Positions 1 to 59,256 of a DNA stretch of 64,000 nucleotides are shown piece after piece. The notes beneath the pieces are model-generated. The model had not been told where the DNA came from and did not search any database. It was given only the letters and a program-made list of their open reading frames with translations. Where the stretch lies: contig BCIN01000003.1 of assembly GCA_039545335.1 (NCBI GenBank), positions 2,613,060 through 2,677,059 of the forward strand. The letters are read 5' to 3'. Numbering within the stretch: the first letter of the stretch is position 1; the number at the start of each line of letters is the position of its first letter. This DNA is from Kondoa subrosea. Lineage: Eukaryota. Position numbers and translations under genes: made by a program.

Positions 1-3000
1 TACCACGCTGGTTCGACCAGGTACTTGATTTGGAAGAGCAAGGAGTGCAGAAATGCCGAAGAGTTTATCAGGCTTAGGAGAACTATGAGGTGTTCCAAGA
101 CGAGGAGAATAAAGTGCCGAGTCCTGTAGCGGATATCAGTGACATTCTGGAGTAGTGATTGCCGACAACTTACCGTGCTGACTGGCAACAGTCCTAATTG
201 CTGTGGCTTGTTCCCGGTAGTGGTTTTGTCAAGGTATGCCAGAGCGACGACTCCATGCTCCGGAAGAAAGCATGAGGTGGGAGACTCCTTTGGCGTGTTT
301 CCAGTATCGTGCAAGCAAGTTTTCTCCTTAGTGTCCGCATTGAATGCTAAAACATCACCCCGCTTGGTAGTAATTAGATACTGAGCAGTATCAGGCACTT
401 GATAGATGCGACGGGGAATGCTGCGAAGCTTGGCGCTGGCGCTTGTAGATGCAGAAATATCAATGGCGGCGGAAGTCGAAACGGAGAAATACTTTTTTGG
501 TTGCGGAGGTGGAGCAACACTCTTCTTCTTCCCTAGCTTGATCGGTACAATTTCGTCTTCATCAGATGATAACGTTACAGACTGTGCAACTTGAGAAGTG
601 CTCGCTACTGGTGCCGCAGCCCTTCGTATTATGGCTTGAGCTGCAGGCTGCTTCTTTACTACAGGTTGTCTGACCAGCACAGGCTTTGTAATCACTTTCG
701 GCGGTGCTTGGGCTGATTCCTGTCTTGGCTCGTTGTCTGGCGAAACACGGACGCTTACCGTCGATTCGATCAATGGAGCCGATCTTGTTTGTTGCAATCT
801 TCTGACACGCATTTCCTCCTCTTCTCTTTCGATCTCTTTGTTGAGATCAAGCGCTTCTCGAATCAAGGCTTGCCGTTCTTTCAGCTTCTCGATTTTAGCT
901 GCTCTATCGGCCCAGTACTCTTCTTCCTCTGCGGTCAAAGTAGGTGGTACTACTACTAGTTGTTGAGCAGGGTCTTGATTTCCGAGCAATACCCTCGGCG
1001 GTTCTTCGATTTCTGAGACTTCTTCTTCATCAACTTCCATCCTGCTTGTTCCTCTATGTACACGAGACAAAGATCTTTGCTGGCCCTGAAACAGATCACC
1101 TGAATTCACTCTTGTTCGCTTGGATTCCCGTACAGATGATTGATGAGCTGGAGCTTCAACAGCAATAACATCATCTGACGAATTGTTCTCTTCGGAAGAA
1201 GACGCAGGCGATCGGGTCCGTTTCTGAGACTGAGAATGGGAAGTCATGATAGGAGCAGATGCTTGTTCAGCTTGTCTTGATGTTGATGCGATAGGCCGCG
1301 ATTGGGCAGATGTTACAGACGAAGAGTGAGGTTGATTCACCAAATGCACCGCATTTGAGGCAGCAGTTGAAGCAAGAGAAGGTTTGATAGTAGCTTGCCG
1401 ACTTTGGACCGATTGATTTGATTGAGCAGAAGTAAGGCTTGTATCTTGAAGTTGGCAACTTTGCGTAACATTGCTTTGCATAGCACGAGTAGGTAGAGTA
1501 TTTGTTGCCGCATCTCTCGGAGCAGAGGACGTTGGAGCGAAAGAATGAACAGGTCGATTAGAATCGGTATGACTCTGGCTGGCATGCATATTTGCAATCA
1601 CTGTCTGGAATGCAGTCTTCTGAGGCGATGTTGCTTGCAATTGATGTTGTGATGGAGGAGCAGGAGAAGGCAGAACTGCTGCGATTTGTCTTTCCAGACT
1701 CGTCAAGCCAGGAATAGGTTGATCTTGCATTGCGACAGCGGGGAGAGGTTGTACAGGAGCAGCGAGTGACTGAGTAAGCTCAGGAAGCTCAGGGAAAGAC
1801 TGTTCTTCCGCTTCGACAACAAGCGTAGACGGTCTTGGAGTGAATTTGCGGACATTGAGCTGATCGTTCAAGATTGCGAACTCGAGACCAGCAGTCACTC
1901 TAGCGATATCATTCAGCTTGTACACCCTGACTCTGATCTCGTGCTCACCTCCTAGTATCCTCAAGCAACCTCAACACAAATGTCCGGGTGAAGGACCGGT
2001 TAACCTTCTTGAGTCCATCCACTCTCGTAGTAGTCAATTCCAGATAGTCACCTTGCACAGTAACCAACAAAGCTGGTTGTCCAAATTCGCCAAACACGTT
2101 AGGTAAATACCAAGCATCGAAAATGAACTCTCTTCTCCGATTAGCAAAATCATGTTCTGTCGCAGGAAATCTTCTCAATTTATTGATGATGCTTTGCTGG
2201 GAGATATTCACTTCATCCCTTCTTCCATTACTGGTAGGTGTTACCAAATTTCTTTCTTCAACCAATTGATGTTGACCAAACCAAACTTCCGGATCGTCTT
2301 TATTTGGATCAAGGACTTTTCCATTGATTGAGAAAGAGAAGACAGCATGAGGAGCGTAAAAGTCAAACATTGCTCCGCGGTTGCTATCGAAGCGGCTGAA
2401 GAATAGTTCAAGAAATTTGTATATTTGTGCTCGAAGAAGTAAATTATCGACTTCTGCGTCTAGGGTTGGAGTGCCGACATCTGAGCTTCGAACTTCTTTT
2501 GGATAGACGACTGGGAGATAGCTGAGGGGAAGGGGAGCGGAAGGAGATGGCGGACGAGAAAGAAGAGGTAAAGTCGGTTTAATATCTTCCGTTGGGGAAG
2601 GCACTGTTCTCGATACGACTGGTGACGCTGGTTCTTCTTTAATTAAAGTTCGCGGAGGCTCGGTGGCTAGCTGATGCGCGTCTGGTAGATTAACCCGAGG
2701 GATTGGTTCAGGTGCATCCGAATCAATTTCCATATCCACCTCTTGTGAAGGGGTAGCCGAAGTAGCTTGAGGCGGGTTTGTTAACTGTCTGGGCAAGATC
2801 GTCGCTGGTTGTACGGGTGCTTCATTGCTAATTCTCGGCGTGAGACTTGGTCGAGGAAGATTGGTGAGCGGTTGCAAGCCAAGTGTGGCAGTGATCTCGT
2901 CGTCTGAGATTTCTTGACCTGGATCAGCTAGCGGAAAGCCATCGAGCATTGATTCATCGAAATTTGACTGGCTAGATGAGGCTACTGGTACAGGTGATGG

Positions 3001-3576
3001 TTTCCGTAGCGCTGTAGGCACTGTAGGTGGCGCAATGGAAGGGCGAGAAACAGATGCGGCGCGATAAACCGGGGGAGAATGTCGCATAGGCAATTGAGAA
3101 GAAGGTCGTTTTTCAGGCGAGACAGATTCGGCTTGAAAAAGAGGTCGACTGTTTCCAATTGATTCCACTTGAGTAGACGGAAATATTTGAGAAGAGACAG
3201 GTCTACTGCTACGAGGAGGGCTCGGACTACGTCTTCGCGGCGGCGGGCTAATGCGCCTGACATAGGATTGAGGCAAACGAGACGAAGAGGCCTGCGAAGC
3301 CGGCCTTCGGTCTCTATCATTAAAGGAAGGTCTTGTATCTGATGGTCTGCGTGCTTCCTCTGTTCTGTCTCTTCTAGGTCCAGACGGTATATCGTCATAT
3401 CGATAAGCTGGTCGCCTGTCTGGAGATCTTGGGCGCTTGTACACTCCACTACTGGAGAACATGCCTCTGCCTCTGGTAGCTGAGCGAACGACAGGAACAT
3501 CTTCTCTTCTGCGCTGCCATCTATCTCTTTCAACATTTGGCTGCAAATCCTCCCTTCGTGCAGCATTGTTAGACAT
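1..3576 (-). CDS. Large protein: RS/Pro-rich N-terminus, NTF2-like domain (Mex67/NXF-type), long low-complexity linker, probable beta-propeller/WD40 region; 3' end runs off the window
   Basis: ORF 1945-3576 contains 'IYKFLELFFSRFDSNRGAMFDFYAPHAVFSFS...RSFTRTFVL' (NTF2-like). An intron (GTGAGC at 1948 to TAG near 1900) joins a long stop-free frame down to ~174. After a further GTAAGT intron the frame reads 'PHSSPKPDKLFGISALLALP...SVV', resembling a WD-repeat blade. Confidence 0.7.
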
Positions 3577-3844
3577 GGTATCCTTATGAATAGCGTAGAG
3601 GTATCAAGAGTCTGTGGTATGACCTTCGTGGTGTGGGTGAAGAAGCAGCATTATGCATTGGCCACGATAGCCAGTTTGTTCAAGAAATGATGGTTTGATC
3701 TTGTTCACCATCCCACCCTCTGCTTCGCGCTTTCTCGTGTGAGCACAGCATATTCTTATGTACAGACATCTGCTCAGACTTTTCCTTGCGAAGATCGCTT
3801 CTGATCTTTCACCTTTTCAAAAATCAACACAGCAATACTTCAAT

Positions 3845-4764
3845 ATGGTGAAGTCAAGTGAGCTGCCCTGCATCAGTCTACTAGTAATCCAGAGTCAACT
3901 CATTATCTCCGTTACAGTGTCCAGTCCTGAATACGTGCTTTGTTTGCTTCAATCACTAAAGCCGATCTGACTTCGGATTCCGCTTCAGCAAGCTCTGATC
4001 GAGAAGAGTACATCATCTTCTGTATATCAACCTGTTCTAGCTAATACGCTTGTTCCGCTTGGGTGTTAGTTCACTACAGCGAGTAAGTCGCGTTCATCGA
4101 ATTTTTGTTGATCTCATACTGATACCTTTTGCAGGCGTTATACGGATGATACGAATCACGAATTTAGACATGTGCGGTCATAGCTTGTGTTGTGAGCATT
4201 TGCTAAGCAGTACAACGAACCAGGTCATTTTACCTAGGTAAGTTTGCGATATCAAAGGAATATTAGCAGGACTGATGAGTTTCTGCAGTAATGCTCTTCT
4301 CACAAAATGGAAATAGCAGTACTGACAATGGTCACAGAGTCGATGCTAGAGTACATTCCGGTACGCGCTTCGGCTTCAACCCTATGGCATCTGATTCCGT
4401 CTTGCAGAAAACCTACTTTCAGTCCGACAAGAAGACCCTACGTATACTGAGCGAGGATGAGTGGAGAGGTGTGTCTAGCGATGCTCTGATTTGCTGCTTT
4501 TGAATTCTGCTTGTAGGTCTTGGTATTGTACAATCACTTGGATGGGAACGTGAGTGCTGTCATACTACATTCCGCACAAAGCTGACTCAGTGTTTCTCAT
4601 TGCAAGACTGTTTGTTCGATTGGCTGGTCAAAGTAGACAATGTGCTAATTTTTGACTTCTTCAGATGAAGTCCATCAGCCTGAACCAAGTGGGTTCACAA
4701 GTCACGGCCAGCTAAATGCTCATACCTCTTCACAGACATCCTCATCTTCCGTAGAGATCACTAA
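3845..4764 (+). CDS. CKS1: Cyclin-dependent kinase regulatory subunit Cks1/Suc1, 94 aa from 12 coding exons
   Basis: Spliced translation: [94 protein letters not shown]. It contains the CKS motifs IHYS, [18 protein letters not shown].GWEHY and PEP.IL.FRR. Confidence 0.95.
4237..4337 (+). other. Putative [D1,2] stwintron (intron nested in the donor of another intron) in CKS1
   Basis: Internal intron 4238-4288 (GTAAGT...ACTGAT...CAG). Its removal joins G4237 to TAATG to make donor GTAATG of an external intron ending ACTGAC...CAG at 4337. This restores CCT AAG TCG (P-K-S). Confidence 0.8.
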
Positions 4765-5045
4765 TCGAGTGATTGTAAGCTTGACTTCGGTCGTTCCGAT
4801 ATGTGTTCCTCACGCCCTGTGCAGGGGTGGGAATTTACACCAGATCTCAACAGATTGCTTAACGACATGGGCATTTACATCTTTCGGCAGGGGCATTTCA
4901 TGCATAAACTTTCCTCTTTCATGATTTTTTTCGGCTCGCACTGTATCAATTGTATCTTTACTACTGCTTTTCTTGCATTTGCCTGTATCTGGATTCTATT
5001 CTAATATTTGAGGATTTCAGTCCCTATCCAATTATCCCAAAGCAG

Positions 5046-6900
5046 CTAGAAAGCAGCTTTACCATCCCTTGCAGCTTTGGCGGAGAGGAAAGCCGCATTT
5101 GACCAAGTAAGATGTTCAGCTCCTTCTGGTTGACCGTTGAACCTGTTGAATTGCTCGCGGAAACTTCCATGCGGTCCTGCAAAGTCTCTACAGATGGCGA
5201 CGAAATGATCTCCTCTTGCTCTAATAGCGACGAGTACTGCAGTGTGAAACTGAGTAGAGGAGAAAATGACGTCGTGGATGATTTGGCCAGGAAGCAAACT
5301 TTCGTAGAAAGGACGAGAGATAGAAGTGACTTGTATGACATTGTCTTTGAGCTCCAACTCCGCACGGTAGAGAAGTTCAGCATGAGCTAGGCAGCAGAGA
5401 TACCATGCATGTCCGACAGATAATCCAACGCCATCATACACGTCCTCTTTACCAATGATCAGGTTGGTCATAGCAAAGGGAAGGCAAGAAATCCATACCA
5501 GGGTATCTGCCTACAGCACAGGCGAATTGCTTCTCGTACTTCTTGTTGATCGGATAGAATCTATGCCCATCTGATCAGTCGAAGCAATGCGAGGGCAGCG
5601 GTATCGAACCTCATGCTGTCGACAACAGCCATATGAGTAGCCAGAACTTTATCGGAAGCTGCTGTCCATCGATCGCCAGTGTTACCAGCATGTATGATAG
5701 CCAGTATGTTGGCAGTGTCGAGACCGGAAACCTTTGCTCTTCTTTGGGCTCCCATCGTGTTTTCGTCATGTTGAGAAACCATTAGATAGCCCTTTTCGGG
5801 GTTCCAGAACGTTTCGAGCCTCTGACTGATGTCTTGAGCTGCAGTGTCGTACTTCTCAGCCGATTTGATGTCGCCCAAGTCTCTGGCGAAAGCAGCACCG
5901 TCTCGCATAGAACGCAAAGAGACTAAGAGGGTGTAAAAGTGGTTGCCATAGCTCTCTTCCCAAAGCTCGTAGCCAGGTTTATCCCAGTAAGAGGCAGTGT
6001 GATCCAGATCGGCTTTGATGACATTTGTGGTCATATCCTTGCAGTCATACAAGTGTTTTGCAATGTATTCTTTGGCGCGGACAGGGTCGATGACCAGAAG
6101 ATGCTTTGCAAATGCGATCAAAGTAGCTGAGCGTAAAGCTGGACCGTCATGCTGAGGGCGACACCACTTTCCTGTAAAAATCTTGAGCTTAGACGTCCTT
6201 TCGAGCAGCTTTCTGTTGAAACACCTACCGAGGTATGGTTTACGATCGACCATCCATTTGACTTCTCCCAATCCTCCGGATTGAGGACCCTGCGCAAGCA
6301 TTAATAACATAATATGGTTGTGCAGCTGTTTTGACGCACCCCGCAGGGATTTATGCCCTGTTGCATTTCTCGAGTAGCTACGAAAGACATCAGACCGCCA
6401 TACTGCACCTCGATATGGATAATCACCCTCGACGAAATCGTTCAGGATAGAGAACATAGACTCATCACCTGAAAACCCATCAGGATCGCTCGAACCTCGT
6501 TGTGCAAATGGACTTACCTTCCTGCCATTTCTGCAGAACAGCTCTCATACAAACGCTTGAGTCGCGTGTCCACTGGAACCTTCGTTGATGTCTTAAATAC
6601 AGATGCGCTCTTGTGAAGGGTCTCTCACCAATAATTGGGCACGTCCTTTGAGACGGCGGCAACGATGCATCCAGGAGCAGTGCCATCTGGATGAACATTG
6701 GCTAAGAAGTTTTTCCAGCATATCTTGGCTTGGACTTCAAGGTATTGGTTCAGAGACATATTTGAGTCGGACCTCGTGACCACTAGTGAATCCATTTGCA
6801 CTTGCGCAGGCTCGTCAGAGGTAGTCGAAGAAACCAGCTTGGGCTCGAGAAGATCGCTTCCGGGTGAAGCGAGAGTAGAAGTAAGACCGCGTTCAGACAT
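5046..6900 (-). CDS. Glucoamylase, glycoside hydrolase family 15 (no obvious signal peptide or CBM)
   Basis: Spliced motifs PNYWFQWTRDSS, GGLGEVKW, WCRPQHDGPALR, YELWEE, GRYPEDVYDG, EQFNR..G, LTWS.AAFL. Confidence 0.93.
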
Positions 6901-7438: not shown

Positions 7439-10400
7439 TCACATAATACAGCAGTCTTCTGTACTTAGACCATCTGTAACTTGGATCAGCCAAGTCTACT
7501 CCGAACAGACACAGCTTACATAGTGCTTTGTCGACTTCCTTTTCCTTTAGTCTCCAATCCGTTCTTCTTTGCAGCAATTCGTAAGCACTGGTTCTGACTT
7601 AGTACGCATCGGATTGTAACAGTTTGAAGACTTACTCCTCACTACGCATTGTCCCTTCATATCTTTGAACATCTTTGACCAAAGCCGCTAGATCCTTAGG
7701 TGCTTCGACTATATAGAGATTGCAGATCATCTTCAGAGCTGTGAAATATGGCGTGATCGATGCTTGGCGGAGCGACATAACGAAAGTATGGTAGGCGTTA
7801 ATATCACTGATGACCTGAAGACCCCCATCGGGCGATATCATAGATCTTTTGAGGTGTTTTAGGATTATGCTAACAGTCACGTGTAAATTCCGGCGTTCGA
7901 TAAGACATTGAAAAGCTTACCCATGCAGGCGTAGACCGATCTCAACGTAGAAGACCTCCAGAATCTGCTTATCGGTATTTCCCTTCAGCATGTCGCAGTG
8001 CGTTTTCAGACATTGAACGACAGCTCGACAAGCGGGTGTAGGTTGCAGGTCCATATCTTCCATATTAGCAGGACAATAATCCGTTGGTTCTTGCTTCGTG
8101 ACCAGAAGATGCTCAGCTTGAGTCATGAGCAATTGAACACCGGTATTGAGACCGCTGGCTACTTGATCGTCTAGAGCGCCTTCGAAACGTTTCTTCTCTC
8201 GCACAACAATGTTGAGGAAATCAGTTCTATCGATGAAGGAGGCCTACAAGGATATCAGCTTGGCAATAATGAAGAAACAGGTCGAATCTACCATTTCTTT
8301 CTCGTAAAAGACCTGAATCATTTGGCCTATTGTATCACCAATATGAACAAGCTCGAAGAATTGAACCAGAGGAGCGACATTTCTCTCTTCTTCGTGCTCT
8401 TCTGGTTTATAAGCAGCCATTTGAGCAATAGCTCTGACCACGAATCAGTTTACATCATCTTCAACAATATCGGTGCTCACTTTTGGAAACCTGGAACAAT
8501 GTGCCGTTCGGAAAGCGTTTGCAACAGTACAATGAAGACTTCTTCTATTGTATCACGAACTTTGATACCGTAAGTTCCCGGATAGCCAGCAAAAGTTTGA
8601 ACGCGTTTGAGTACATCTCGGTCGGCTTGAATGAGTTGCAAAGCAATATCGAGGGAAAGGAGTAATTGAAGTTTCGCGAATTGATCGGCTGAAGGTTTGG
8701 TAGGAGGAGGTTGCACATCCAAAGAAAGTCGGTTGACCGTCCATTCCGGCGCATCTTGGTCAAAATCAACTACTTCTTCATCTACTGTGGAGTTTGGCTT
8801 GATCACCGATGCAGGAGATGCTTGTCCGACTCCAACTAGTCCACCTAGACCAGCTCCAATGGTTTGGACCGCGTTGAAAGTTCCGGTAGTGACGGCAGTG
8901 AGTGAGTAAGCGACGGTCTTCGGAACAATAGTGACAGGCATGAGTAGAGCTTTGCCAAAACTTGCCATAACATTACGTTTGACCAAAGCTGGATTAGAAG
9001 ATGTAAGAAATGTGCCTGCTGAAAGACTTGGATCTTCTGCTGCCAATTTATCGTTGAAGACTTTACAGCTATCTTCTAGCACTGATCGGACCCAGTCTTG
9101 CTCTTCCTGCAGATAATCGTCCATGTGCAGCTCGAACATTCGGTAGATTACATCTTCAGCTTGATGTTTTGTTATCAGATGCGACTCAGCGTCAATACCC
9201 AACAGGCACGGCACCAGCCGTGAGACTTGAGCAAAAGTTGCCGCTGTCGCTAAAAGGAAGAGAGGATTTGCGAGGGATTGAGCGGCAGACAGTAAAGGTG
9301 TGATGTATTCAGAGATCTTCTTTCCCGTCAAGCACGATTTAAGAGCGTCAGATCGGACTCACTACGTCGGTAGCTATCCGTTCAGCGAAATCCAAAAGCA
9401 CCCCACTGTCTTTTGGAAACACTTTTGCTATGACTTCTCCTTCTTTTTTGACCACATCCAGAACAAAAACCATATAGCGATCCATTGCAGCGAAATCGAT
9501 ACCGTCCACTATTTCTCCCGTGGTGCTTTCTGGGTTAGGGATCTTGACCAAATTCTTCAACGGATTATGCGATTGATCGTAGAAGATCTCTCTTCGGTTG
9601 ACAAAGACTTGAACGATGTTCTTATTGCTTGCACCGCTTAAGCTGTTGAGCATATTAGCTGAAGTACTAGCTGTTGTTGGTAACGCCCAAGCGACGGTCG
9701 CGCATCTTTTCATCGCTTCTAGATCATTCCGGATATCAGCCTTTTCAAATTCTGCCAGAATTGCACCCTCGAAGAAATCGATTGCGCTCTCGAGATTGCG
9801 TTTGTATATGTTTAGTGTTGTTGCTGATCGAGTGGGAGACAGAGGCTGGATTAAGAGGTGTGTAAGGGAAGCCAATAGTCTGGCACGGTTCAGCTGAGAC
9901 AGAGTGGTTTGCGTAAAGAGTAAAGAAGAGGTCGTATGTATTTGCAACGAGAGATAGTACGGTATCAGGCTTGTATATGCCTTGATGAAAGCTTCTTTTG
10001 CGCTTTCGCCAATTGTATTGATTACAGCTGCTTCAGGTTGCGCTGAATTCTTCTTGAGCTCATTGCTTATGTTCATGCTGATATCTTCCGACCCATCGTC
10101 ATCAAAAGACAGCAGATCGTTCGCTGCCTTTGACTTAGCAGCACTTTCTTGAAAGCCATTGCTTGTAGCGACAAAGTCTCCAAAGTCGTCCTCATCGTCC
10201 CCGATCGTGAAGAGGACATCTTGATTGATTGACTCCGCTTGACTCGGTGTTCGACTATGCGTAGCATCTTCTGTTGAGGCTTGACCATTCGCTTGCTTTG
10301 CAACTACTGGTTTCCGTTGCTCTAGATCCAGGAGCCTGAGTTTTGCATTCCATACTACATCATCCTTTGCAAGTACACTCAAACGACGAGAACAGAGACA

Positions 10401-10562
10401 CAGAGAGCGGACATCAGGCAAAGTTGCATGAGAGAGAATCAACAGCATTGCAGCCTCGGGCAGACGACCTATCATACGCGTTTCGCTGGTCTGTCCAACG
10501 CTCGTAGGTGTAAGTAGGCTCCATCTTGAGGGCTTCACAGGCGGCTTAATGCCTCTTGCCAT
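7439..10562 (-). CDS. RCY1: Recyclin Rcy1/Pof6: F-box + Sec10-like domain, C-terminal CAAX box
   Basis: F-box 'RLPEAAMLLILSHATLPDVRSLCLCSRRL'; Sec10-like 'PLVQFFELVHIGD', 'KKRFEGALDDQVASGLN', 'GGLQVISDIN'. The last exon ends ...LSTEDCCIM*. Confidence 0.92.
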
Positions 10563-10817
10563 CGTTGAATGTCAACAGCCTGTTTCAAGCGAAAGCGAAA
10601 GCTGGTTATTCTGCAAGTGCGACATGGTGGTACCGAGATCTGTACTGCTTATACTGTAGTGTGCCAATCCCACGCGCTATTGCGGCCTACATTTCCATGG
10701 CATTCTCACTTTAAAGTAGACAAAGGAAAACTACTTCTATCAGATGATGTACTCTAAGTGTCTTCTCTGCTCTCCCCTCACGCCTTTTCTCCTTTCTGTC
10801 TGTTCATTTACCGTAAT

Positions 10818-46647: not shown

Positions 46648-49283
46648 TTACTTTCTCTTCATTCGTTGATTGCCAGAACTTGTACGCTTGATCGCAGAAT
46701 TACTTGCACTCCTTCCAATCTTCCTCATTCTTTTTCTACCTTCTCGATCTTCACCAACCAACTCTTCACCTTCATCTTTTTCAGCAACACCTTTTTGCAA
46801 CCCAACTCCGAATTCAGATTTCTTCTTGTTGTCCGTCGCCAATTTCGCTTTCCTGGCTGCTTTCTTCTCCTCTTTCGCTTCCGCGTCAGCCGAAGTAGAA
46901 GGAATGAAGCTATATTCCATCCCTCCACCTCCAAGACTTTTGATCGCATCTCTATTAGCTTGAGCAGCTTGACCGCGAGAAAGTGTTCGACCAGATCGTT
47001 TAGATAATTCACCAAATGTACTTGTTGCAGAAGGTCGATCAGTGGAATCGCCATGTCGCTCGATAGTGAGTTGTGGTGCGGAAGTGGGGATTTTCGGTTT
47101 GGAGGTGGTTGTGGAGACGTCTCGTTGACGTTTAGTAGGAGGGACATATGTGACCAGTTCTGTTTCTCAAGATTGAATCGTGAGACTCGAGGATGAATGA
47201 AAAGAACATACCATTCTCTGCACTACTATCTGAATCTTGAGCAGCGTCTTCTTCTTCCTGCTCTTCGCCATCGTCTCCTTGTAACCGCCGATTCTGCTCA
47301 AATGAAACTCAGCTGCTTTCAAGTCGATACACAGATTAAGCTTACACTCGCTCTTGCTGCCGCGGATGGGTTGAGCATAGCAAACTCTTTACTCGACTCA
47401 TCGATAGTGAAAGCTTTATCAGTGAACAAGCTTCCAAATCGATCATCAGCCAATAATGACGGTTTGTCTTTATCTCCTTGAGCGTTTGTTGGAACAGATT
47501 CTTGGGTTTCGGCTTCGGCTTCATCAACTTTGCGTTTCTTGTTTCTTTCCTTTTCTTCGCGTACTTTGATTCTCTCAGCCAATTGTTGATTGACCTTGAA
47601 CTTTTCCGCAAGAGTAGGTAATTTCCCATTAGAAGCAGGTAAACCTTTCTTTGATCGAATTCTGGATTCCCTTTCTTTTTCCAATCGTTGAGCAATAAGT
47701 TGTTGTCGATATTCAGAGTAAGCGAAAGGATTAGCAATAGCTTTTGCTTTGCTGTATAATTTCAAATCGACAAAGAATCCATGCATGTATGGTCGAAGAG
47801 TAGGAGTACCAATCAGATGATCTAGATTGAGTGAAGCGAGTTCTTGACGATCGATAAATTTATAGTCTTCGTATAGATTGGCAGACTTGTTGTTATCGTC
47901 TTCCATTTCTTCAGTCATATGATCTAAGAATCTACACCATCTAGGTGCTTGCCCAAGGGCTGGTATGTAGTAGCTCGTTATTGCTGATTGTTCGTTAGCG
48001 AGGAAAAGAAGACCGGAATCAGGATAAATATGCATATCGTTTATAGGCGAAGGAGGATTGATAGCGACAAAGTTCTTGCCTTGAGCTGAAGGTGACGAAT
48101 GCCAGATCTTGACAATCTTGCTATCGGCCGTAGCTACTAGCGGACCATCCGAATGATCTGATAAAGTTGTTGGCCATTGAATCTTCTTGATCGGAAGACC
48201 ATAACCTTGATCTTTGATAGTGTAAGGAGTAGGAGAACGTAGATCGTATAGAAGAGTGTGGCCAGTTGAAGTACCAACCGCCAAATTCAGACCATCTGAA
48301 CGCGATGATATTGCAGTCACGCCCAATTGAGCATTCGATAGCTTTTTGTTGTCTGGATCCAAAAGCGAAAGACCAGGTAATCGGCTCGCAGCAGAAGAAG
48401 TAGAAGAAGCGAGCTTGTTGTACGGTAGAGTTAACAACCCAACTCTTCTCCGTACTCGTTCATCCCAGAATTCGACTGTTCCTTTTCCAGAATTCACTTC
48501 TGTCCCAAAGGCAAGTAGATGATGAGCTGGATTGACGTCTATCGCATTCACACCGACAACCATTTCCTCCTCTTCGTCGAAAGGGGCGTCAGAACTTTCC
48601 TCGGGATTGCCATATAAAGCGAATGGAGCGAGAAAGCGCCCTTGTTCGAGATTGAGACGAAAAACATGACCTCCTAGACCTCCTATAAGAGCATCACAAG
48701 AAGGATAGTGATAGCCTAAGGCTCGACCGGCTTTCGGTATTCGAGTTCGATAAAAAGCTGAAGCTTGATTATGTAATTCAATAGATCGGTCTGCTTGTAG
48801 ATGTAATGTTTTCGTCCAATCATCAGAAAGAATCTGTCGATTACAAAAACCTACTAAGTTTTCGAAACACTTGAAAGGCAGCTCCGCAACAGACCTCGAA
48901 ATCTACATTCTCCGCATCTGTGGTTCTTGCAAATTTCATTCCCAATTCATCCAATTCGAAAACTTTCATCCTAGGTTTGTACGTTCCAGTAGAAAGTAAG
49001 AACTTGCCATCACGCGAGCTCTTGATCTTGTTTGAGGCTTCGGGGAAATCAAGATCCTGTGCGGATGCAGGAAATGTCAGTACGATCAACGTACGAACAT
49101 TCGCGGACATCGCACCTGAATCAATCGTATACCTTTCCCGGTCAGTGTTCCATCTTCATTTGATCTGCCTTTGCCTTTCTTGCTACCTTTCTTAGCGACC
49201 CAGTCTGGAGCCTGACCTGCACCTCCGTTGACTGTATAAACAACATGATTACCTGCTCCGCTTTGCTGCAGCGTCAAAGCCAT
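46648..49283 (-). CDS. ENP2: Ribosome biogenesis protein Enp2/NOL10 (WD40 + NUC153)
   Basis: IRLIQDLDFPEAS, TGTYKP, DDWTK.LHLQ.DR, DQGYGLPI, YYIPALGQAPRWC.FLD..TEE, DDRFGSLF.D..F.IDE.S.EF. Confidence 0.95.
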
Positions 49284-56379: not shown

Positions 56380-59256
56380 TCAAGCCAAAGAGCCATGGTT
56401 CGGTGGAAGTTCCTGAACGCGAATGCCATAGAAGCTTTCGATTCTGTACACGAAATCGACAACAAATCAGCAGATGACGAGTTTGCGCGAACTTCACTGT
56501 ACCTTCTTAGTCCAGCGATGTCATCTTCACTTGTAATTACATTTACTGCAGCTCCGCCTCGACCATAACCGCTCGGAGCGCAGACGGAGACGGAGTGCAC
56601 GTAGGCTTCGACTGACGTCGGCAGATCGAAGTTGATAACCAAAGGAACTTGATAGAGGTCAGATAAGGTGCGGCACAGAATATCAAAGCTGCAGATATAG
56701 CAACTGATCAGCAAAGTCATGCAAATCGTATTCACACGTACATAACCAAGCACTTCTTCTGCGCTGGGCCAGCATTGAATTTAGACATGATGTTGGCTCT
56801 TGCGGAAGAACCCATGTCGCCATGCTGTATCTCTATTAGTCGATTACCGGTATAGAATGTGAATGCGCTTACCAAAGCGAGAGCATCAATACCTCGTCTC
56901 GTCAGATGGTACGAGACAGCTTCTACCGCCTCAACAGATCCACCTTTCCGTAGACAATCAGTGAAGGCTGTAATTCAGAGACTGTTCACATACAATAGAT
57001 GACCACTTGTCTAGCTTGCACGTCCTCTACTAAATCAGCAACCGCTTCTAACTTCCAAGCTTCTTCACCCGGACCGCTTCTGGTACCTTGAGCACGACTC
57101 GCAATAGCAACATAAAGGAAATAATGTCGAATGCCTTTAAGAACTGTTTCGATACCACTGCTTGGGCTCCTATTACTTCTTCCTCCTCCGCCTCCTACTA
57201 ATGAACTACCAGCATTCGAAGCAGCTACAGCTGTTTTGCGAACTAGAACTCGAACTGGTTCTCTTAATTGCATAGAAGAAGCCATAGTGAGCAATTCCGG
57301 ACTCATGACTCGACCGAAAATTGCTGTTTGGCGTGCGACTTTGGGGCCGTTACTGACATTTGAAGTTGTACGTTCTCGATTGTCCGAATCGCCAAAGGGA
57401 TCGAATTTGGGTGCAGCGTAAGAAGGAGAGGAAGAAGGCGAAGGTAAGAGTCTCATAAGATTGTAGACCATCTCAGTTGACTGTTGATTGACTAGGGCAT
57501 CCGCTTCATCCAAAATGACAATCCGAGGACCACCTTCGTACCCAAAAGCGCGCATTGCTAATAGATCCAGGATGGTCTGACAAGTACCGATCAAGATGTG
57601 AGGCCGGGATCGTTGCAACATGTTGTGATCTTCCGAAGCATTTTGCGACACTGCTAGACCTGTGCGAACACCGAGAGTTGATCCCATCTGCTGACAGACC
57701 TGGTGGGCGAAAGAAGCAGCTTCGACGCTTGCAGTGATGACTAGAGCAGTAATGGGAGAAGATGGTGAAGCGGCACAGATCTGAATGGCTGGAAGAGCAT
57801 AGGAGATGACGCTCTCGAGAGAAGTGCTACACTGGCTAACAATATCTTCTCCAGCTTGAAGCAAACATGGTATTGCCTTGAGCTGAATCTTCGTGGGTGC
57901 TTGTAAAGTGGAGATGCGAAGGAGAGATTGAAACAGATTTGGACTGATCAAAGGTGCAATGCAAGACCACTTCTGATGTATCAGAGCGATATTAGAGTCA
58001 TTTTCGCTGACGTGACTATGACTTCCCCCATTCATCGTTGCTGGCTAAAAGAGTAGTTCAATGTCTTGTTCTCAAGTGGTCATGGAACATATACTCACAT
58101 CTAGACTGATGCTGCGGTCGGCTAATTGTGGTCTAGGATTGAAAGAGGGCGTTGCGGCGGAAAGCTTAGCTTCAGGTTGAGCTTGTGAAATTACCTGTTG
58201 TAGCACGGGTGAATTGGAGTGTCTCTGTAAGCTGAGAGATTGCTGGTGTTGCGAAGCTTGCACAGAAAGTAGTTGAGCTACAGTTCCGCTGAGCGAAGAG
58301 ATTTGCGAAGATAGCTGGCGAATTGTTTCATTATTGCCATCGCTCTGATTGGCAGTGTTTAAAACGCCAGTCAAGACAGAAGCTGAGATTTCTGATGATC
58401 CGCCGACTTGCTGCGGTGCTCGGCCAACTGCTGAAGAAGCTGAAGATCCAGGCGGACCTGAATTGGACTGACGTTGAGCACGAAGAAGGTAGTCCACATC
58501 CGTTCGCAACGAGGCAACTTGAGCTGTAAGATCGCGCAATGGAAATAGGCTGAATTCTACCCTTATAAGCCGACTACATAGTCGTAAGCACTGAACTGCT
58601 CCATCGCTGACATGAAAGAGCTTACTCTAACAAGTCCTGCGCAAAAGGATCAGTGGCATTGAGACCACTTTGAGGAGTAATTGAGTTCGGTTCGACTAAT
58701 GCATCGCCCGCAGATGGATTGGCCTTCGATAGATCTGCTGCTTGGGAGGACGATGGAGCTGGAGAAGGATTTCTGTGAGCTGCCAAAGAATGCAATTCGA
58801 CTGCTGGACTTTCTGGTCTCGCAGCAGATTCCGTCGTGTTGGTGCCTTCGGCGGAGGAAGAAGCAGACATCTTGTAGAATGTATCTCGAACAGCTTTCTG
58901 ATCCATCTCCACCTGCAAATCTTCTCGTTCCTCAACACCCCAAGCAGCTAGAGATTTCTCTCTCGTCAACGGAGTAATCAATTCGAATTGCTTGTTAGCT
59001 TGTACAGATTTACGTTGTTCCATAGCTGGTCTCTTAGGAGCTGCAGGTACGTCTATGGCAGTCAGAAAGCATGAAACTGAGCGGAAATTGTTACTGCTGA
59101 AGAGAATCTTCACATACAGCAGCCATTCTGGAAATGTCCAGCCATACCCGCTTCTTGATCAAATGCGCCAAAGGTTTGATCATCCAGCTCTGGATCTGAT
59201 CCAGTAGGTGATCCAGAGCGAAAGGGCATTCGAGGAGACGCAAAGCCATGCGACAT
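56380..59256 (-). CDS. eIF4A-like DEAD-box protein with degenerate ATPase motifs and N-terminal coiled-coil/disordered extension
   Basis: PTKIQ..AIP, PHILIGT, ILDEAD, L.EPVRVLV, LKGIRHYF, HGDM, VPLVINFDLP, RIESFY..RVQELP. Motifs I, III and VI are not canonical. Confidence 0.85.

Follow-up and report, generated by a model that had tools for sequence, protein, structure and literature searches.

A candidate [D1,2] stwintron in a basidiomycete CKS1 gene

The lysine codon of a conserved motif in a basidiomycete CKS1 gene is interrupted by 101 bases (positions 4237-4337, + strand) that start with GG and probably constitute a [D1,2] spliceosomal twin intron (stwintron), a reading to which we assign a probability of about 0.7. 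In this arrangement an ordinary 51-nt internal intron (4238-4288) separates a single G (4237) from the remainder of a 50-nt external intron (4289-4337), and excision of the former would assemble the donor of the latter. All positions refer to the window, i.e., the whole 64-kb stretch of DNA that was analysed.

Results

A CKS1 gene in a basidiomycete genome

The reading frame of the longest exon of the gene (exon 8, 4408-4468, 61 nt) matches chains of Saccharomyces cerevisiae Cks1 in the PDB (3qy2, 4lpa and 1qb3; phmmer, E 1.7e-4 to 2.5e-4), as well as Schizosaccharomyces pombe suc1, and the spliced model reaches 142.9 bits with a profile HMM of 94 full-length CKS proteins from basidiomycetes, all of which carry PF01111 (CKS / Suc1) in the database table. 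Alignment with the best-scoring basidiomycete CKS proteins gives 53-57 identical residues over 80-84 columns (about 63-71%). Homology thus identifies the gene as CKS1, a member of the CKS family across the whole domain, and bears out the name proposed in an earlier sequence-only reading of the locus, both for a single exon (E=1.7e-4) and for the spliced model. A Pfam scan of the five CKS1 ORFs that bear exons returned 0 families because single exons are too short, a phmmer search of a 37-residue piece against a representative library gave 0 matches, and no protein of 40-130 residues in the protein collection shares three words with the ORF of the longest exon. The absence of the CKS1 product or a close relative from that collection fits gene finders failing on an intervening sequence that starts with GG and on a 3-nt exon.

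A 527-codon NOL10/Enp2 ORF in the same window (47322-48902, - strand) places the host among the basidiomycetes, closest to Pucciniomycotina; the sequence-only reading had likewise taken it for a basidiomycete. Of the best 120 matches of this ORF, every named protein belongs to Basidiomycota. Pucciniomycotina lead the ranking at 52-57% identity (Pseudohyphozyma, Microbotryum, Leucosporidium, Rhodotorula, Mixia and rusts), and Agaricomycotina come next, while the top match overall is a Logan protein (P0001) with 84% identity, and none of the best 120 reaches 100%. A quick model of the NOL10 gene runs into stops at residue 110 or 154; its candidate introns are 59, 52 and 52 nt long, all putatively with G at +5, and the second intron of the gene (48855-48897, - strand) could not be fitted to canonical sites in the expected phase, a misfit that may be an analysis error or another unusual junction. 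The ORFs around CKS1, named from domain matches, form an ordinary fungal housekeeping context: an NXF/Mex67-type NTF2 domain (1945-3603), a glycoside hydrolase 15 domain (5561-6544), Sec10 with an F-box (8477-10571) and a DEAD-box helicase domain (56986-58044), all on the - strand.

Exons and introns of CKS1

Reading of exon edges over 3600-5000 yields a model of 12 exons on the + strand, running from ATG at 3845 to TAA at 4762-4764, with 285 nt for 94 residues and exon sizes of 13, 17, 19, 13, 37, 13, 23, 61, 33, 3, 24 and 29 nt. Its ten simple introns measure 47-62 nt, with a median of 53. G stands at +5 in eight of the ten simple donors, the exceptions being GTGCTT (3935) and GTACAT (4008), both of which are placed solely by aligning the variable N-terminal region to CKS proteins from Rhodotorula and agarics.

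In this N-terminal part, exon 1 (3845-3857, 13 nt, including the start codon) is followed by a 60-nt intron (3858-3917, GTGAGC..CAG), exon 2 (3918-3934, 17 nt, placed by homology), a 54-nt intron (3935-3988, donor GTGCTT), exon 3 (3989-4007, 19 nt) and a 62-nt intron (4008-4069, donor GTACAT). Exon 2 leads to an EY-Q junction that aligns with DYQDL of Rhodotorula CKS (P0230 and P0207), and exon 3 falls in a ten-residue stretch common to many basidiomycete CKS proteins, 97 of the 120 that were examined having IHYS. This N-terminal model (N3) scored best against the basidiomycete HMM, with 142.9 bits as compared with 140.7 and 137.0 for the others: an alternative in which the ATG stands alone before a single 141-nt first intron lies 2.2 bits below it, and model N1 (donor GTATAT, F before HYS) was dropped at 5.9 bits below. 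The best-fitting model requires, over 3858-4069, a 17-nt exon and two donors without G at +5.

Further downstream come exon 4 (4070-4082, 13 nt), a 52-nt intron with GTAAGT, ACTGAT and CAG (4083-4134), exon 5 (4135-4171, 37 nt), a second 52-nt intron (4172-4223, GTGCGG..CAG) and exon 6 (4224-4236, 13 nt), which encodes V I L P and supplies the first base of the K codon. Beyond the 101 bases, exon 7 (4338-4360, 23 nt) completes this codon and continues with S M L E Y I P; it is followed by a 47-nt intron (4361-4407), exon 8, a 48-nt intron (4469-4516) and exon 9 (4517-4549, 33 nt). The 3' end consists of exon 11 (4665-4688, 24 nt), a 47-nt intron (4689-4735) and exon 12 (4736-4764, 29 nt, with the stop codon).

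Exons 9 and 11 are separated by a gap of 115 nt (4550-4664) that contains two branch motifs and divides into introns of 57 nt (4550-4606, GTGAGT..AAG) and 55 nt (4610-4664, GTTTGT..CAG) around the triplet ACT (4607-4609). As a putative exon 10, placed by homology, this triplet supplies the H-Y of W-E-H-Y-E-V-H and adds 10.3 bits to the HMM score; W-x-H-[YF]-E-x-H is present in 120/120 basidiomycete CKS proteins, and the Y is missing when the triplet is left out. CKS1 therefore seems, from its homologues, to contain a 3-nt micro-exon. In two introns an AG close to the branch motif is bypassed, at +4 past the CTAAG motif in 4172-4223 and at +5 in 4550-4606, and the AG that is used lies at 17-21 nt.

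The intron density of the gene is extreme, with 11 intervening sequences (12 if the stwintron is counted as two) per 285 coding bases, or about one intron per 24 coding bases, and about seven exons of 3-19 nt. It is specific to this gene, since the NOL10 gene in the window has a 527-codon exon. Sets of introns drawn from ORF junctions across the window were noisy and small (8 unique junctions), with a median near 50 nt and no donor +5 frequency to be had from them.

Layout of the 101 bases between exons 6 and 7

The internal intron (4238-4288) has the donor AG|GTAAGT and the branch motif ACTGAT (4271-4276), with 9 nt between this motif and the CAG at 4286-4288, 13 nt past the branch A; a GAG at +4 is passed over. 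G4237 would be G1 of the split external donor G|TAATG, and the remainder at 4289-4337, which together with this G makes up the 50 nt of the external intron, contains the branch motif ACTGAC (4321-4326), 8 nt ahead of the CAG at 4335-4337, with the acceptor 12 nt past the branch A. Both units thus carry a CTRAY branch, at 13 and 12 nt from the acceptor, respectively, like the simple introns 4083-4134 (12) and 4361-4407 (13). Since an early AG is bypassed in introns 4172-4223 and 4550-4606 too, the same rule points to the CAG at 4288, not the GAG at 4279, as the internal acceptor. The succession of exon, G, GTAAGT, ACTGAT, CAG, TAATG, ACTGAC, CAG and AG TCG ATG given in the sequence-only reading is exact, and its remark that each component has its own branch site and a typical length agrees with these distances and with the intron sizes of the gene.

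Set against the published search model for [D1,2] stwintrons (PMC9024468), the internal unit shows the preceding G, a listed donor, a branch of the form [AGT][CT]T[AG]A[CT] and an HAG 4-20 nt downstream, and the external unit has its own branch motif and acceptor. The regenerated donor GTAATG fits the consensus G1|U2 R3 W4 G5 Y6 at U2, A3 and A4, with U at +5 and G at +6. The model, in the available text of its source (PMC9024468), admits only donors with G at +5, and because this G is obligatory GTAATG is not scored by it. The layout is more than chance: when the 74 interior bases of the 100-nt stretch were shuffled, with the donor and the last 20 bases kept fixed, it arose in 1.9% of 200,000 shuffles, and in 0.95% if both halves were to measure 45-60 nt.

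When both strands of the window were scanned for the [D1,2] pattern, 3 loci emerged; of the other two, one falls within an ORF of 460 codons and one at an ordinary intron of 70 nt, and no second copy of the 5' part of the stwintron was found in the window. Folding of 4224-4360 is unremarkable (z = -0.61), with no terminal inverted repeat, and no Rfam family was found in 3600-5000, so that an intron-borne snoRNA is unsupported.

Splice paths and their products

Every way of removing up to three GT/GC-AG introns in succession, each of at least 20 nt, was enumerated from exon 6 to exon 7. In this exhaustive enumeration none of the single GT/GC-AG excisions yields a product that is both in frame and free of stops. 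When 4238-4337 or 4238-4339 is taken out in one step, the frame shifts and stops follow (the former excision keeps G4237, which leads in the +1 frame to a stop in exon 8), whereas removal of 4238-4288 alone leaves a stop in the retained stretch. Two excisions yield 13 in-frame products, one of which is collinear with CKS homologues (VILPK, then SML). Four two-step paths lead to this product (29+72, 42+59, 51+50 and 79+22 nt), and only 51+50 has both units within 47-62 nt; it joins CCT A to AG TCG, resulting in HVILPK-SML. Both the frameshift on single-intron splicing and the restoration of HVILPK by nested removal of 51 and 50 nt had been claimed from the sequence alone, and the enumeration reproduces them. 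Three excisions add one further collinear product, with T in place of K, which needs introns of 21-29 nt. The opposite, [A2,3] order fails, the base next to the gap after removal of 4288-4337 being A4338 rather than G, and its product is frameshifted.

Scoring of the products ranks them in the same way with two profiles. Against the HMM of 94 basidiomycete CKS proteins, the stwintron product (142.9 bits) lies 7.8 bits above a product with an 8-nt micro-exon (135.1) and 7.0 above a GC-AG alternative (135.9), and an HMM of 10 yeast CKS proteins gives 134.8, 126.7 and 127.7 bits, respectively.

In the 116 basidiomycete CKS proteins with a readable motif, LP is followed by K in 113 and by R in 3 (Rhodotorula), with no insertion in any; these come from the 120 proteins obtained by a protein search with an exon of one metagenome locus (L008), four of which are truncated. 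An R codon as in Rhodotorula is unreachable by any canonical splice path of one to three excisions. A pattern scan of metagenome contigs yielded 14 loci, all CKS and all with K after LP and no insertion. The CKS core lies in one ORF without an intron in 12 of them, and the remaining two (L004 and L008) have HV[MI]LPK within one exon; an intron at the K codon was found in none of the 14, none of which is a close relative. The CKS protein of Rhodotorula diobovata (P0224) lacks the Y-R before HVLLPR that is present in both P0230 and P0207, a two-residue gap that looks, from the alignment, like a mis-set intron boundary in the annotation, near the region studied here.

The enumeration shows that, under canonical rules, nested removal in two steps would be the only realistic route to a functional protein. 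The analysis establishes the layout, that no single step solves the frame, that the product is homologous to CKS proteins and that the DNA is correct; the two-step path is our inference. The spliceosome would take out the ordinary 51-nt intron 4238-4288 in a first step, using the best donor in the region (AG|GTAAGT at 4238) and, as acceptor, the CAG ending at 4288, which lies 13 nt past the branch A and is the earliest AG that could serve, the GAG only 4 nt from the branch A presumably being too close. G4237 would thereby be joined to T4289, creating the donor G|TAATG of the 50-nt external intron, which would leave in a second step via the ACTGAC branch and the CAG at 4337, yielding HVILPK-SML. 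If 4238-4337 were instead removed in one reaction, G4237 would stay behind, with a +1 shift and the stop in exon 8, and productive CKS1 expression would therefore depend on the order of two splicing reactions.

Alternative explanations

Several observations weigh against a stwintron: the regenerated GTAATG lacks the G at +5 that is usual in the donors of this gene, direct pairing of the strong donor at 4238 with the good acceptor further along at 4337 could give a frameshifted RNA, and Rhodotorula, the closest relatives with a name, carry R at the site instead of K. Because every in-frame solution, the 8-nt micro-exon included, needs GTAATG or worse, the weak donor favours no other splice model but rather an unproductive gene, in which 4238-4337 would be one long intron (GTAAGT..ACTGAC..CAG), a genuine one-base insertion at the exon edge would truncate the protein, and a different copy would supply the function or nonsense-mediated decay would remove the RNA. 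We consider this unlikely. It agrees with the outer sites being the strongest in the region, with the exon 8 stop that their one-step use entails, and with the off-consensus donor on which rescue depends; one-step removal of [D1,2] stwintrons, leaving one G, is moreover a documented side reaction in the available text of two studies (PMC12403724; PMC9024468). However, at 100 nt the intron would be about double the length of any of the ten simple ones, and the internal branch, acceptor and following T would have to be a coincidence of the kind seen in 0.95-1.9% of shuffles. The rest of this 12-exon gene is intact, as the stwintron reading would have it, the other 11 exons and their splice sites being conserved. 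CKS1/suc1 is essential in model yeasts, which also counts against an unproductive gene, and a second CKS1 copy may exist elsewhere in the genome.

The same donor GTAATG would serve if introns 4238-4279 (42 nt, ending in GAG) and 4288-4337 (GTAATG..CAG) were spliced independently around an 8-nt micro-exon (4280-4287), placing S F C between P and K in a frame free of stops, in a gene that seems to tolerate an exon of 3 nt. We regard this as distinctly improbable, in view of a GAG only 4 nt past the A of the ACTGAT branch, where two other CKS1 introns bypass an AG at +4/+5, of a 42-nt intron shorter than all ten simple ones, of an insertion at this site in 0/116 basidiomycete and 0/14 metagenome CKS, and of the 7.8 bits lost; the 8-nt exon had been named in the sequence-only reading as an outcome that would speak against the stwintron. 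Direct non-canonical GG-AG splicing, with 4237-4337 leaving in a single reaction and with no intermediate, would give the same correct mRNA and cannot be told apart from the two-step path by sequence. It is nonetheless very improbable, since GG donors are very rare, pairing with U1/U6 would be held in the register of 4238 by the perfect AG|GTAAGT lying one base further on, and the internal branch and acceptor would be left unexplained.

An extra base at 4236-4238, or near 4288/4338, could also mimic a stwintron; GG is a short homopolymer, and an assembly indel at 4236-4238 or 4288 was another possibility raised beforehand. Logan contigs from two DNA runs (k-mer depth 143 and 54; about 19 million letters), built from reads by a different assembler, cover 3700-4900 (1201 bases) with 0 differences and 0 gaps. 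Both runs were made from a single sample, probably the one from which the assembly derives, and the match therefore rules out an indel introduced in the consensus or assembly, though not a mutation confined to that culture. An assembly indel at the locus is thus unlikely, and sequence error as an explanation is largely refuted, with hardly any probability left to it.

Discussion

Stwintrons serve as natural experiments on intron origin, one-base shift and loss, and their validation is described as being 'in ascomycete fungi' in the available text of a 2025 study (PMC12403724). Within the available portions of the literature that uses the term 'stwintron', all validated cases are from ascomycetes and no basidiomycete example is described, in agreement with the sequence-only reading, whose author knew of no well-described case: one stwintron position is reported to be unoccupied in 52 Basidiomycota orthologues, another to hold a standard intron in Basidiomycota, and the host gene of another could not be traced there. 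Nested-intron publications that name basidiomycetes deal, by their titles and abstracts, with organelle introns, are reviews, or concern an ascomycete. If the CKS1 case is true, the stwintron layout would arise generally where very short introns are spliced by intron definition and would not be the peculiarity of one phylum, and it would be a warning to annotators of such genes. It is a tentative and rather doubtful extension that nested splicing in an obligatory order exists outside Ascomycota and that the choice between the two-step (productive) and the one-step (frameshift, decay) path acts as a dosage throttle on this regulator of the cell cycle, the share of productive RNA being set by the weak GTAATG.

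Ordered removal of an intervening sequence has a parallel in the recursive (ratchet-point) splicing of long animal introns, in which the junction of the first reaction regenerates a 5' splice site and removal is stepwise and ordered. In CKS1, too, the 5' splice site would be regenerated at the first junction. In contrast with recursive splicing, the units are about 50 nt rather than kilobases, and the regenerated donor would take its G from the exon of the first reaction, so that skipping the first step changes the frame. Within CKS1 itself, the short introns around the putative micro-exon 4607-4609 offer a second comparison, since there too a stretch of double length (115 nt) contains two branch motifs and two units (55-57 nt). 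Such introns are independent of each other and can leave in either order, whereas the second donor of the stwintron would be absent until the first intron is gone.

Closer in geometry are overlapping [D1,2]/[A2,3] stwintrons and the one-base intron shift (PMC5587772; geometry in PMC9024468), in which, according to the available text, two genuine U2 introns have a terminal G in common (AG|T). The internal acceptor G of CKS1 (4288) is likewise also the G of a GT donor; unlike in those stwintrons, the [A2,3] order fails here.

The closest counterparts, as far as the available text of the reports describes them, are the [D1,2] stwintrons of Pezizomycotina, i.e., the sister and unique stwintrons of Hypoxylaceae/Xylariaceae and that of Aspergillus nidulans lipS (AN7524) (PMC9024468, PMC12403724, PMC5639578). 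The CKS1 case has in common with them the G before a full internal donor, the internal branch and HAG acceptor followed by T, the presence of an external branch and acceptor, ordinary intron size in both units, and one-step excision that leaves one G and a +1 frameshift. It differs from them in its basidiomycete host, in a donor (GTAATG) outside the published model, in having no sister copy in the 64-kb window and no terminal inverted repeat or unusual fold, and in being known here from DNA. On this comparison the CKS1 intervening sequence is a candidate [D1,2] stwintron in a phylum new to this class, with an atypical external donor and neither sister copies nor a terminal stem.
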